A program made the position numbers and the translations under genes. A stretch of DNA of 64,000 nucleotides from Shigella phage Sf19. The stretch lies in the sequence record MF327005, one strand, 5' to 3'. The notes under the pieces were generated by a model. It made no database searches. It was not told where the DNA came from and worked only from the letters and a program-made list of their open reading frames with translations. Position 1 is the first letter of the stretch. Each line of letters starts with the position of its first letter. This document shows positions 59,638 through 64,000 of the stretch, one piece after another.

Positions 59638-60678
59638 ATGGAACAATACACCTTAACAAAGCTCCCAGAGAGCGTTACACACGTCTTTATTGACTCTGAT
59701 AGCATTGCTTACAAAGGTGCTTGTGTAGTTGAAAAAGCAAAGTACAAGTATGTGAATAAAATCACTGCTGAAGAATCCGACGCTTTTGATAGTGCAAAAC
59801 TGGCAGCACAATGGCTGTCTGACCAAAGAGTTTTAACTGAAGAGTTAGGACTTGACTTTGATGAAGATGAATGGGAAAGACAGACTTGGAAGGAGGCTAA
59901 GAGTGAAGCTGAAGCAATTATGGCTACACAGCAAGTTCTTCAGGAGTGGTTGAAAGTCGTTGGTAAAGAACGCAAATGGATGGGTTACCTTACTGAGAAA
60001 GGTGTTCACAAACACAAGGATATCAAAGGTCTTGAACACCAATACCAAGGTAACAGAAAAGAAGCTGTAACACCTACACACCTAGTTGCTTGTCGTGAGT
60101 ATCTTCTGTCACGACCAGAGTTTAAGCTCCTAAAGGGGGGCTTCGAAGCAGACTCTATCGTTATTGCAAAAGCTGAGAAGATGGGTAAAAAAGCTGCTCT
60201 GATGAGTATTGATAAAGACCTTCGTCAAGCTGAAGGAACTTACTGTATTGATATGACTTACGAGAAAGCTCCATTAATTTTCATTGCAGATAATAACGTT
60301 GGTGAGATTTGGGATTGCCCTATCAAATCTAAACCGAAAGCTAAGAAGACAGTCGGAGTAGGTTTTAAATTCCTCTGCTATCAAGCTGTAGCAGGTGATA
60401 ATGCAGATAACTACTTCGGTTTAAAAGGTGCTGGTAAGGTTGCAGTGATGAATGCACTGGAAGGTAAAACTACCTACAAAGAGTGCTTAGACGCAATCTA
60501 TGAGCTTTATGCTAAGAAAGAGTCATACACCTATGAATCATGGGATGGTCAGATTGTGACAAGAACTCCACTAGAATTAATGGAGCAACACTTCTGGATT
60601 GCTTATCAAGAACGAAATCCTAAAGATGATTTTACGTTTAAAAAATACAATTGGGAGCCAGTTATGAATGAAGATTAA
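59638..60678 (+). CDS. 5'-3' exonuclease / flap endonuclease (FEN family)
   Basis: VFIDSDSIAYKGA, FEADSIVIAKAEK, GDNADNYFGLKGAGKVAV resemble FEN/RNase H-like nuclease motifs; GGAGAG RBS. Confidence 0.7.
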   Translation: MEQYTLTKLPESVTHVFIDSDSIAYKGACVVEKAKYKYVNKITAEESDAFDSAKLAAQWLSDQRVLTEELGLDFDEDEWERQTWKEAKSEAEAIMATQQVLQEWLKVVGKERKWMGYLTEKGVHKHKDIKGLEHQYQGNRKEAVTPTHLVACREYLLSRPEFKLLKGGFEADSIVIAKAEKMGKKAALMSIDKDLRQAEGTYCIDMTYEKAPLIFIADNNVGEIWDCPIKSKPKAKKTVGVGFKFLCYQAVAGDNADNYFGLKGAGKVAVMNALEGKTTYKECLDAIYELYAKKESYTYESWDGQIVTRTPLELMEQHFWIAYQERNPKDDFTFKKYNWEPVMNED

Positions 60679-61168
60679 AGGATTTGGAAATTGCCCTGTT
60701 TATGGACATTGGGTTTCACTGTGCGGGGAAATTGACCCCGCTAACTATTTTGGTTTTGTCTATTTAGTATACTGTAAGAAAACTGGACAATATTATATTG
60801 GAAAGAAACAATTTAATAACGTCACTAAGAAAAAGGTTGCTGGAAAGACCAGACGTAAAGTCGTGACAAAAGAAAGTGATTGGATGACTTATCAAACATC
60901 TTCTGAATACATTAAGAAAGATATTGAATCTTTTGGTGAAAAAGAGTTTGACTTCTACATCATCCAGACTTACTATACGCGAGGTGGCTTAGTTTATGGC
61001 GAAGCTAACCTACAACATAAGTTTGACGTCATGACAAAAAGGATTGACTCTAAGCTTCGACTCTTCTACAATGCAAACATTGCAGCAATCAAGTTTCTTA
61101 CAAAAGAGACTTATGATGAAGCTGAGAAGAGAATCACTAAAATCATGAAACTTAATGAGAGAGTTTAA
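60668..61168 (+). CDS. GIY-YIG-like endonuclease
   Basis: 166 aa; FVYLVYCKKTGQYYIGKK matches GIY-(10)-YIG spacing. Confidence 0.5.
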   Translation: MKIKGFGNCPVYGHWVSLCGEIDPANYFGFVYLVYCKKTGQYYIGKKQFNNVTKKKVAGKTRRKVVTKESDWMTYQTSSEYIKKDIESFGEKEFDFYIIQTYYTRGGLVYGEANLQHKFDVMTKRIDSKLRLFYNANIAAIKFLTKETYDEAEKRITKIMKLNERV

Positions 61169-61385
61169 AATGTTTAATAAAATCAAAAATGACCATGTTT
61201 CTAAAATCCAGAGTGGTGTAGCAGCACTGAAGGAAACTATCAGTAAAGCTAAGTCAGCTACAGAAGCTGAGATGGATGCTCTGGAATCACAAATTCAACA
61301 TCTGTTAAGCAAACGTGTTGAACTCAAAGAACGAATGGACTATATTGAGTCTCAACAAAAGTTGTTTGAAGATAAGGAGGCTTAA
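61155..61385 (+). CDS. hypothetical small coiled-coil protein
   Basis: 76 aa ORF. Confidence 0.4.
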   Translation: MREFKMFNKIKNDHVSKIQSGVAALKETISKAKSATEAEMDALESQIQHLLSKRVELKERMDYIESQQKLFEDKEA

Positions 61386-62140
61386 TGTTTAATTCCAGAG
61401 AATCCGTAAGAAATTGGAATCTACGTTGTGGCAATAATCCAAAAGAACCATACAGCACAGAGTATTGGGAATCACTGAAAAGCCAATCTCTGTGTATGCT
61501 TGAAGAAGCTAGAGAGTTAGTCGCAGCAGTAGAAGCCAAAGACCCTGTTGAGACCCTTGATGCTCAAGCTGATTTGCAGTATGTACTTGATGGTTTAATT
61601 TTCCTGACACAACATGACCATGATGGTGCTATCAAGGCTGTTTGTGAAAACAACAACCTCAAATACACAGACGACTATCAAGAAGCTCTACAGCGAATGT
61701 TTGATATTGAGAAACGTACTGGTGATGAATGTTACCTGCGTCAATCAATCATCGAAGGTAAAGAGTGGTTTGCGATTATTCGCAAGTCTGATGGTAAGAT
61801 TATGAAACAGTCTAATCTTCCAAAAGTTCAACTTGAAAGTTTTATTGCAGAAGTTGACGCAAAAGAATTATTTGTGGTAACATCTGACACATGCGTTATC
61901 TGCCAAGGACTGATTGGAAGTCTTGGTAGTCTTGGCATTAAAAACTTTTCTAAAGTTGAACCAATCTCTTCAAAAGCAGATAAAGATTTCTGCCGTGAGA
62001 ATGGATTATGGCTTGCGGATATTGTGTACTATGATGGTGAGAAGTTCCATGTAACCTCATATCCGAAATTGAATTATGATGCAATCAACCTCAAGCAGTG
62101 GTTGAAAGGAGTCGGTTATAATGGATTCACAGAACATTAA
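61385..62140 (+). CDS. MazG-like NTP pyrophosphohydrolase domain fused to CxxC thioredoxin-fold-like domain
   Basis: N-terminus EEARELVAAVEAKDPVETLDAQADLQYVLDGLIF; C-terminal FVVTSDTCVICQ. Confidence 0.45.
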   Translation: MFNSRESVRNWNLRCGNNPKEPYSTEYWESLKSQSLCMLEEARELVAAVEAKDPVETLDAQADLQYVLDGLIFLTQHDHDGAIKAVCENNNLKYTDDYQEALQRMFDIEKRTGDECYLRQSIIEGKEWFAIIRKSDGKIMKQSNLPKVQLESFIAEVDAKELFVVTSDTCVICQGLIGSLGSLGIKNFSKVEPISSKADKDFCRENGLWLADIVYYDGEKFHVTSYPKLNYDAINLKQWLKGVGYNGFTEH

Positions 62141-62447
62141 TAAAGGTGAAGAAGTGGTGGCAAAAAGCCACTTCTCCAACTACAACCTCTCTATGACAGT
62201 GTTTATGAATGATTCACTGTTAGACAAGTACGGAGAGAAGCCAGAAACGATTCTGGATAATGAACAAGTATTAGCAGCAGTGTTGTATAAGTATGGCTTA
62301 AATATTGATAAACCGTACTCTTACGAGATTTGCCAGCACAGAAATACTTTTGGTAAAGTTGTTGTAGCCCCCCTGTTCATGGGTGTAGAGCGCACAGATG
62401 ACCAGTGGATTTACTTGAAACGAAACTTGGATAGATATCATGTCTAA
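62121..62447 (+). CDS. hypothetical protein
   Basis: 108 aa ORF. Confidence 0.4.
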   Translation: MDSQNINKGEEVVAKSHFSNYNLSMTVFMNDSLLDKYGEKPETILDNEQVLAAVLYKYGLNIDKPYSYEICQHRNTFGKVVVAPLFMGVERTDDQWIYLKRNLDRYHV

Positions 62448-62775
62448 AATTAAGAAGTTAACTAAAGAAGAAATCAAAGCTGGTGAAGAACTAGGCAATG
62501 ATAAGTTTGGTGAGACATTACATCATGGTGACTTTGTAATGTACACTGAAGATTGCAAAGGTCGCAGCGATATCAAATTTGGACGAGTTGTCTGCAAAGT
62601 ACGTGGTAACTTTTCAATTGCAAGACTTGAAGAAGATATTAGTGAGAAACTTGACATGGCATTCGATGAAGGTAAACGTTACTGGTACATGAATACAATG
62701 TCTAAAGGTTCACTAACAAAAGTGTCACAGAAGTTCATTGAACTCTGGGAAAGTAAAAAGATTTTTAGCATTTAA
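62440..62775 (+). CDS. hypothetical protein
   Basis: 111 aa ORF. Confidence 0.4.
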   Translation: MSKIKKLTKEEIKAGEELGNDKFGETLHHGDFVMYTEDCKGRSDIKFGRVVCKVRGNFSIARLEEDISEKLDMAFDEGKRYWYMNTMSKGSLTKVSQKFIELWESKKIFSI

Positions 62776-62782
62776 TCTCTAA

Positions 62783-62806
62783 GGGGTCTCTTCGGAGACC
62801 CTTTTT
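62783..62806 (+). terminator. rho-independent terminator
   Basis: gggtctc-ttcg-gagaccc followed by ttttt. Confidence 0.6.
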
Positions 62807-62826
62807 CACCTGTAGGATTTAATATA

Positions 62827-64000
62827 ATGATTACTACTATTCGCAAATCAGACGGTACAATCGTACCATTCGAACCAGAACGTTTAAATAAGTGGGCTTC
62901 ATGGGCTGACAAGAGAGGAATTATCTGGTCAGAAGTTGTAATGGAAGCTATGAAGCGTGTCTATGAAGGTTGCACAACAAAAGAAATGCACCAAGCTATG
63001 ATTGACGTTTGTATTGATAAGCAAACTCAAGAGTACTCTGATATGGCTGGGAGACTACTTCTTGGCATTATCTACAAAGAAGCTTTTGGTGGATTTACAA
63101 AGGTTCCTCAATTACTTCCATTTGTGATGAAGATGGAGCAGATGGGGCTTTGGGAGCATATGGATTACACACCTGAAGAGATTGACTATTTACAAGGTCA
63201 CATTGTACATTCAAAAGATATCTCTTATGGGTATGCAGTACTGAAGCAGTTCCGTGATAAGTATGGAATCCGTGACATTAAAAGTGGTAAGCTGTTTGAG
63301 TCTCCACAGTTTATGTTCATGGGTATGGCTATGAAATCCTTTGAAAGACAGCCTAAACAGCGCCGTTTAGATGATGTTATTAAGCTCTACACATATCTAT
63401 CTGACCTGAAGATTAATGCCCCTACACCGTATCTGAATGGTCTGAGAGCTACAAAATCTGGCTATGCTTCATGCTGCCTAATTAAAGCAAACGATACTGC
63501 TGAATCTCTTGGCATTGCTACAAAAGTAGCTTATGACATGACCACTAAGCAAGCAGGTATTGGTATGCTGATGGAGACCAGAACAATTGGTGATGGAATC
63601 CGACAAAATACTATTGAGCATATGGGAAAACTCCCTTATTATAAGCTTGTACGTGCTGCTGTAGAAGCTAATAAGCAGAAGAGTCGTGGTGGTTCAGCTA
63701 ATAACTTCTTCACTGCATTAGACCCACAGATTGAGGATTTGCTACGCTTGAAGCACCCTACAACGGTTCCTGCAAAGCGTATTAATGAAATGGATTACTC
63801 ATTTGGTGCAAATGATTACTTCTGGCAATGTGTACAGTACGATACAGATTGGTTGCTATTCTCTTACAAAGACGCACCAAGACTGTATGATATGTTCTAC
63901 ACAGCAAGTGCTGATGAATTTGCTATGGCAGTAGGTCACGCAGTTCATACAGGTGTTAAACATAAACGTGTAAAGGCTCGTGAGGTTGCCAAGTTGTTTA
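62827..64000 (+). CDS. nrdA: ribonucleotide reductase large subunit, class I (3'-truncated by window end)
   Basis: ATG at 62827 (not in ORF track, no stop in window); N-terminal ATP-cone, then NAPTPYLNGLRA and SCCLI region resembling NrdA. Confidence 0.8.
   Translation, partial: MITTIRKSDGTIVPFEPERLNKWASWADKRGIIWSEVVMEAMKRVYEGCTTKEMHQAMIDVCIDKQTQEYSDMAGRLLLGIIYKEAFGGFTKVPQLLPFVMKMEQMGLWEHMDYTPEEIDYLQGHIVHSKDISYGYAVLKQFRDKYGIRDIKSGKLFESPQFMFMGMAMKSFERQPKQRRLDDVIKLYTYLSDLKINAPTPYLNGLRATKSGYASCCLIKANDTAESLGIATKVAYDMTTKQAGIGMLMETRTIGDGIRQNTIEHMGKLPYYKLVRAAVEANKQKSRGGSANNFFTALDPQIEDLLRLKHPTTVPAKRINEMDYSFGANDYFWQCVQYDTDWLLFSYKDAPRLYDMFYTASADEFAMAVGHAVHTGVKHKRVKAREVAKLF

Follow-up and report, generated by a model that had tools for sequence, protein, structure and literature searches.

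The all-alpha NTP pyrophosphohydrolases include DR2231 of Deinococcus radiodurans, MazG, HisE/PRA-PH and the dimeric dUTPases, which are all built as an all-alpha bundle with a metal site of the form EExxE...ExxD. T4 gp56, which we take to belong with the dimeric dUTPases of this superfamily, serves in uracil exclusion and in the supply of dUMP to thymidylate synthase. The NrdH-redoxins (E. coli, 1h75; C. ammoniagenes, 1r7h; M. tuberculosis, 4f2i) are free-standing proteins with an 80-residue glutaredoxin-type fold and a CxxC motif at the N-terminus of alpha1, and T4 NrdC is the textbook analogue of a glutaredoxin or thioredoxin encoded in a phage ribonucleotide reductase (RNR) operon. A phage enzyme of the MazG superfamily with tested activity is Atd1 of Pectobacterium phage PcCB7V, which was described with a MazG-like catalytic domain only, without mention of a thioredoxin-fold domain, and is found in anti-defence regions near NTase genes (bioRxiv 10.1101/2022.06.09.495361).

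The gene described here lies at 61385..62140 (+ strand; 251 aa plus stop) of the window, i.e., the whole stretch of 64,000 nt of Shigella phage Sf19 (MF327005) that was analysed, and is referred to as gp075, its name in Shigella phage Sf17 (phrog_2144). The protein has the helical bundle and metal site of DR2231 and its superfamily and differs from them in an extra beta-hairpin, an R-x-x-D-x-K-x-x-K motif and a fused thioredoxin-fold domain. This C-terminal domain resembles the NrdH-redoxins in fold, in the position of its CxxC, in having Val (in Sf17) as the first of the two middle residues and in lying near nrd genes. Unlike NrdH, it is fused to an enzyme, has no CVQC, cis-Pro or WSGFRP and is kept in phages without class I RNR. 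Like Atd1, gp075 is a phage member of the MazG superfamily, but its gene neighbourhood is of another kind.

The gp075 gene and its N-terminal domain

The coding sequence was taken from the ORF list and the sequence. It starts with an ATG preceded by a strong Shine-Dalgarno sequence (AAGGAGG). This ATG overlaps the stop codon of an upstream ORF (76 aa, coiled coil) in the string TAATG, and at its other end gp075 shares its last 20 nt with the beginning of gp074. Positions 60600-64000 of the window are 100% identical to Shigella phage Sf17, a Mooglevirus of the Ounavirinae (Felix O1 group), where the gene is annotated as FDJ00_gp075, "MazG-like pyrophosphatase". The protein matched phrog_2144 ("MazG-like pyrophosphatase") over its full length at E 7.5e-96, and tblastn recovered it, again full-length, from about 300 phage records, with Escherichia, Salmonella, Shigella, Citrobacter, Erwinia, Pectobacterium and Hafnia as hosts and with one record carrying a Listeria phage label. 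Given these records and the full-length PHROG match, the fusion is a stably maintained gene and no artefact of assembly. Public names for the family are "MazG-like" and "phosphoribosyl-ATP pyrophosphohydrolase", which cover the N-terminal domain only, or else "hypothetical"; the second is a superfamily label, and no histidine operon is present. No description of a MazG-glutaredoxin or MazG-thioredoxin fusion was found in full-text literature searches, and gp075 is a newly recognised domain-fusion form of a known kind of enzyme.

The ORF at 60668-61168 (+, 166 aa) is named "NAD synthetase" in RefSeq and carries a GenBank note of a GIY-YIG homing endonuclease; its positional counterpart in metagenome contig L084 has the Pfam domain SegE_GIY-YIG. 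The RefSeq name is probably wrong.

The N-terminal domain (aa 1-155; 61385..61849, +) was assigned to the all-alpha NTP pyrophosphohydrolases (MazG/HisE/DR2231-like), as the preliminary description had proposed, using Pfam, profile, AF2 and Foldseek searches. Pfam PRA-PH (PF01503) matched residues 17-85 with E 7e-7 and 30 bits (cut-off 21.3). A PDB search with a profile of 43 diverse relatives matched HisE 1yvw (1e-5), AF0060, the MazG-related 2yxh and DR2231. The AF2 model (mean pLDDT 83 and pTM 0.52 for the whole protein) is helical over residues 8-112, with helices at 25-50, 54-75, 79-93 and 98-112 followed by strands at 116-133, and the pLDDT of this block is mostly 84-97, falling to 70 over residues 71-80. 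Foldseek matched the model to the MazG-like dUTPase DR2231 (prob 0.97) and also to viral proteins named DR2231-like, PRA-PH or MazG.

Two acidic motifs were placed by family conservation. The first metal-binding motif, E40-E41-x-x-E44 (61502..61516, +), has E40 and E44 invariant and E41 at ≥90% among 43 diverse N-domain sequences, and all three residues are invariant among the two-domain members. In the second, E56-x-x-D59-x-x-x-D63 (61550..61573, +), D63 is invariant, and E56 and D59 are the majority residues of the family consensus. The helices are followed by the family-specific beta-hairpin and the motif R133-x-x-D136-x-K138-x-x-K141; N90, K93, K138 and K141 are likewise invariant in the 43 diverse relatives, and R133 and D136 nearly so. 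Judged on this conservation, the metal and phosphate-binding site looks intact, and an activity of the type NTP to NMP plus PPi is predicted.

The gene was also considered as HisE. This was rejected on the NCBIfam search of gp075, which returned no HisE match (sole match MobA, E 0.058, noise), and on the surrounding genes, which are of replication and nucleotide types, with no histidine operon.

The C-terminal CxxC domain

The C-terminal domain (aa 160-245; 61862..62119, +) was delimited from the AF2 secondary structure and has a thioredoxin fold with glutaredoxin topology. Its elements are beta1 161-165, alpha1 171-182, beta2 189-191, alpha2 197-205, beta3 212-216, beta4 221-225 and alpha3 233-242. 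The CxxC motif, C170-V-I-C173 (61892..61903, +), was read directly from the sequence and sits in the model between beta1 and alpha1, at the N-terminus of alpha1. When the domain was searched as a sequence profile against the PDB, NrdH and glutaredoxins ranked first, with marginal E-values of 0.025-0.1. The proposal of a glutaredoxin- or NrdH-like C-terminal half with a CVIC motif thus agrees with the AF2 fold and the top PDB matches, and both halves of the protein return the folds first suggested for them when searched by profile and structure.

Family-level matches to the C-terminal domain were few. Pfam Glutaredoxin (PF00462) matched two orthologues at 25.2 and 24.5 bits against a threshold of 22.9, over profile positions 1-39 of 60 only, and did not match the window protein itself even at E ≤10. 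No NCBIfam family, NrdH TIGR02194 / NF007657 included, matched the domain at E ≤1; gp069 of the same phage gave weak NCBIfam glutaredoxin and NrdH matches. The C-domain and gp069 (Felix O1 ORF115, phrog_22) have the fold class and a CxxC in common, and only about 25 columns can be aligned between them (hhalign E 2e-4, prob 44%). An origin of the domain as a recent copy of the phage glutaredoxin was rejected on this short alignment and on a BLASTP E of 0.62.

Free-standing relatives of the C-domain amounted to just two fragments among the 5.8 billion proteins searched. One of them (P0169) comes from contig L084 (2996-3641), where the gene is split into ORFs of 120 aa and 88 aa. Since nrdA is split in the same contig, this fragment is probably an assembly error or a pseudogene, and it was not accepted as a natural free-standing C-domain. 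Scans of viral sequences with P0022 and P0023 found nothing.

Both cysteines of the motif are invariant across 36 loci (30 unique sequences) and also across relatives with as little as 26% identity. This invariance across loci and distant relatives means that the CxxC domain is not a chance occurrence; it is a sign of selection, without telling for what. The two middle residues vary (VI, EI, SM, SL, FI, TQ, GL, GM, AI, TL, RM and II) and are never Pro. The C-[VM]-Q-C active site of NrdH is accordingly not conserved, with CVIC in Sf17 and CEIC, CSMC, CSLC, CFIC, CTQC, CGLC and others elsewhere, and neither is the region equivalent to the NrdH motif WSGFRP[DE]. The thioredoxin-fold cis-proline position, at the start of beta3, is occupied by D212 (codon GAT, 62018..62020, +), which an HMM alignment places opposite the Pro of the NrdH segment QAPVV. 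The 36 loci have D, S, Q or C as residue 212, in no case P, and they lack Pro throughout residues 204-214. The cis-Pro is conserved even more strongly than the CxxC in thioredoxin-fold proteins and has been proposed to prevent metal binding (PMC2757866), and in DsbA its substitution abolishes turnover (PMC13269488).

Neither of the two prolines that disfavour metal binding, the cis-Pro and a Pro inside the CxxC, occurs in any member, which makes a metal or sensing role a serious rival reading. The CxxC would then be a ligand site for a metal or an Fe-S cluster, possibly bridged across a MazG-type dimer, with a structural or sensing role, for example the sensing of iron or of the oxidative state, which bears on nucleotide oxidation and on either class of RNR. 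Consistent with such a site, D199 is invariant and residue 212 is usually D, both in loops expected near the active site in the AF2 model, and nearly all members have a third Cys, at position 203 or, in Erwinia phages, at 212. The number of invariant cysteines is only two, however, known metal-site motifs are unmatched, and C203 is probably distant from the CxxC, so that we regard a metal or Fe-S site as possible but unlikely. The relocation of the third Cys was seen in the Erwinia phage orthologues (L003, L035 and L036), in which C203 is replaced by Ala and D212 by Cys (codons 61991-61993 and 62018-62020 of gp075); P0023 has Cys at neither position.

Neighbouring genes and co-occurrence with nrdAB

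The gene overlapping the end of gp075 is gp074 (62121..62447, +; 108 aa), named "hypothetical" in RefSeq. A phmmer search matched it over its full length to 9w3d_G (E 2.6e-59, about 87% identity), and 9w3e_G (PP1), of the same family as EP1 and gp074, was matched by profile at 7e-29. It was therefore assigned to the EP1 family of inhibitors of host RNA polymerase. [quoted passage not shown] A gp074-like gene lies downstream of the fusion in 36/36 Ounavirinae-type loci.

The overlap with a gene for an RNA polymerase inhibitor that contacts beta' and omega, and the recurrence of MazG-like and EP1-like genes as a pair in other phages, would fit an N-domain that acts in anti-defence or host takeover, e.g., as an Atd1-like pyrophosphatase of (p)ppGpp or of a signalling nucleotide, translationally coupled to the inhibitor. 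Such a role also has a precedent in Atd1, a phage MazG-like protein that weakens TIR-based defence and has ppGpp as a substrate (bioRxiv 10.1101/2022.06.09.495361). The Atd1 work is, however, a preprint on a different MazG subgroup, and its source phage PcCB7V is not among the approximately 300 records with the gp075 family; Atd1 was accordingly rejected as an orthologue of gp075. The dominant conserved neighbours are moreover ThyX, NrdB and NrdA, and an anti-defence role of the N-domain is considered quite improbable.

A second ORF, gp073 (62440-62775), follows gp074. The 5' part of nrdA, which encodes the large subunit of class Ia RNR and is annotated as nrdA in Sf17, begins at 62827 and runs off the window (62827..64000, +); its translation starts MITTIRKSDGTIVPFEPERLNKW. 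The placement of gp075 just before the RNR gene, as given in the preliminary description, has to be amended in that these two ORFs intervene. In most Ounavirinae, gp075 is 0.7 kb upstream of nrdA and in the same direction. Directly after nrdB, Sf17 has a canonical standalone glutaredoxin, gp069, with CPQC and a cis-Pro (MPF). Sf17 also encodes ThyA, DHFR, a dNMP kinase, NrdAB and NrdDG, and no dUTPase or dCMP deaminase is annotated in it. A tblastn search of Sf17 for a trimeric dUTPase, using an approximate E. coli Dut query, gave a best E of 4.4, i.e., noise. In the Ounavirinae, ThyA is about 19 kb from gp075 and on the opposite strand.

Downstream of the nrd cluster and beyond the window, at 71657-74400 of the Sf17 record (L006 58-2801), two adjacent genes encode a ribose-phosphate pyrophosphokinase-like protein and a nicotinamide phosphoribosyltransferase. 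The pair may form an NAD+ salvage or reconstitution module directed against NAD-depleting defences.

Relatives of the protein were collected with HMMER from 1.84 billion representative proteins. Most of the 1385 relatives are of about 160 aa and consist of the N-domain alone, and the CxxC domain is found in only about 7 clusters at 50% identity. Genes for ThyX and/or class I RNR lie within 8 kb in 12/13 of the non-Ounavirinae viral loci; the 13 contigs carry N-domain-only relatives, without the CxxC domain, and the usual gene order there is MazG-like, ThyX, EP1-like, NrdB, NrdA. The proximity to RNR thus belongs to the pyrophosphatase and not to the CxxC domain.

This order recurs in the unrelated IMG/VR contigs L037, L038, L074-L078, L080 and L083, where a homologue of a sigma-displacing RNA polymerase binder is placed inside a dNTP-synthesis cluster. 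The label "thymidylate synthase" of phrog_3506 on the small EP1-like protein looks like a mislabel. Many relatives of 220-250 aa (P0027, P0031, P0035, P0042-P0047, P0052, P0054, P0055, P0069 and P0080) carry acidic, Cys-free C-terminal extensions of 70-100 aa after a linker of the form PKVDL..FVP. Homology of these extensions to the CxxC domain, as degenerate copies of it, was not established, as the hhalign match (prob 53%, E 1.4e-4) fell to prob 0.3% and E 0.18 when the linker was trimmed, and a PDB profile search with the extensions found nothing.

The co-occurrence of the fusion, the standalone glutaredoxin and nrdAB was compared across the Ounavirinae-type loci. The fused CxxC domain is present in all 36. 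Among loci with nrdAB and a flank long enough for assessment, the standalone glutaredoxin is present in 31/31; it is absent in 3/3 loci without nrdAB (three loci from two lineages), where the fused CxxC persists. One of these lineages is Pectobacterium phage Arno18 (MK290738.1; L041-L043), which keeps the fusion at 41% identity with a CEIC motif and also has an EP1-like gene, NrdD/NrdG (class III RNR), ThyA, Prs and NAMPT. Neither nrdA, nrdB nor grx was found in its complete genome by tblastn at E ≤1. In L039/L040, the fusion is likewise kept with an intact CxxC, and nrdA, nrdB and grx are absent within 8 kb on each side. The layout of L039/L040 is Arno18-like, with a deoxynucleoside kinase inserted before nrdD.

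These distributions bear on the suggestion, made in the preliminary description, that the fusion couples dNTP sanitation to the reduction of RNR. In such a model the C-domain would be a hydrogen donor of the NrdH or glutaredoxin type, acting on the disulfide at the C-terminus of the large RNR subunit. A donor role would be in keeping with the thioredoxin fold, the canonical position of the CxxC, the NrdH-redoxins as top PDB sequence matches and, in most Ounavirinae, the co-directional nrdA 0.7 kb downstream. Against it, the dedicated glutaredoxin after nrdB is present wherever nrdAB could be assessed and in none of the loci without nrdAB, whereas the fusion keeps an intact CxxC in Arno18 and L039/L040. 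CPQC, a cis-Pro and co-variation with nrdAB are features of gp069 that the C-domain does not share; it has no C-[VM]-Q-C, no WSGFRP and no NCBIfam NrdH or glutaredoxin match. Relatives consisting of the N-domain only, moreover, have the same RNR linkage. The coupling to RNR reduction was for these reasons not upheld, and a donor role of the C-domain is considered quite improbable. NrdH-like chemistry is nevertheless conceivable for the domain, its best sequence matches being NrdH proteins, and in phages without nrdAB it could reduce the NrdAB of the host.

Function and significance

The reading preferred here, with a probability of roughly 55%, is that gp075 is a pyrophosphatase of the dNTP pool with an accessory CxxC thioredoxin-fold module and not a dedicated RNR reductant. 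The N-domain would most likely hydrolyse (d)NTP to (d)NMP and PPi within the phage dNTP supply. Its preferred substrate may be dUTP and/or dCTP, so that, like T4 gp56, it would keep uracil out and supply thymidylate synthase with dUMP. This choice of substrate is suggested by the frequent position of the gene directly upstream of ThyX, by the likeness in fold to the dUTPase DR2231, by the presence of ThyA and DHFR in Sf17 and, less strongly given the approximate query sequence, by the fact that a dUTPase was neither annotated nor detected in Sf17. As HisE is a better sequence match than the dUTPase DR2231, specificity for dUTP is a guess, and the distant position of ThyA in the Ounavirinae also speaks against the reading.

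The C-domain would be an accessory module of the pyrophosphatase, acting as a redox- or metal-sensing switch or as a docking domain. For the phage class Ia RNR, the likelier dedicated reductant is gp069, the canonical glutaredoxin with a gene of its own behind nrdB. A regulatory contact between the two domains is unproven, as the inter-domain geometry of the AF2 model (pTM 0.52) is not confident. A more specific proposal sees in the cis-Pro-less CxxC domain a new kind of regulatory module that switches or localises a phage dNTP pyrophosphatase, either by sensing redox state or Fe/metal or by thioredoxin-like docking, for which the redox-independent use of thioredoxin by T7 DNA polymerase offers an analogue. 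This is rather unlikely on present evidence; if true, sanitation of the dNTP pool or the supply of dUMP would be tied to the replisome or to the state of the infected cell with regard to redox or iron.

Phages of the Felix O1 type are widely used for typing, biocontrol and therapy of Salmonella, E. coli and Shigella. Recognition of the CxxC thioredoxin-fold domain allows the annotation of gp075 in these phages to be corrected. The locus also gives a general caution, in that proximity to RNR genes was inherited from the pyrophosphatase family and is uninformative on the added domain. The C-domain is a natural CxxC thioredoxin fold without the cis-proline and is as such relevant to the mechanism of thioredoxin-fold proteins, and it points to a connection, open to experimental test, between control of the dNTP pool during infection and redox or metal state.
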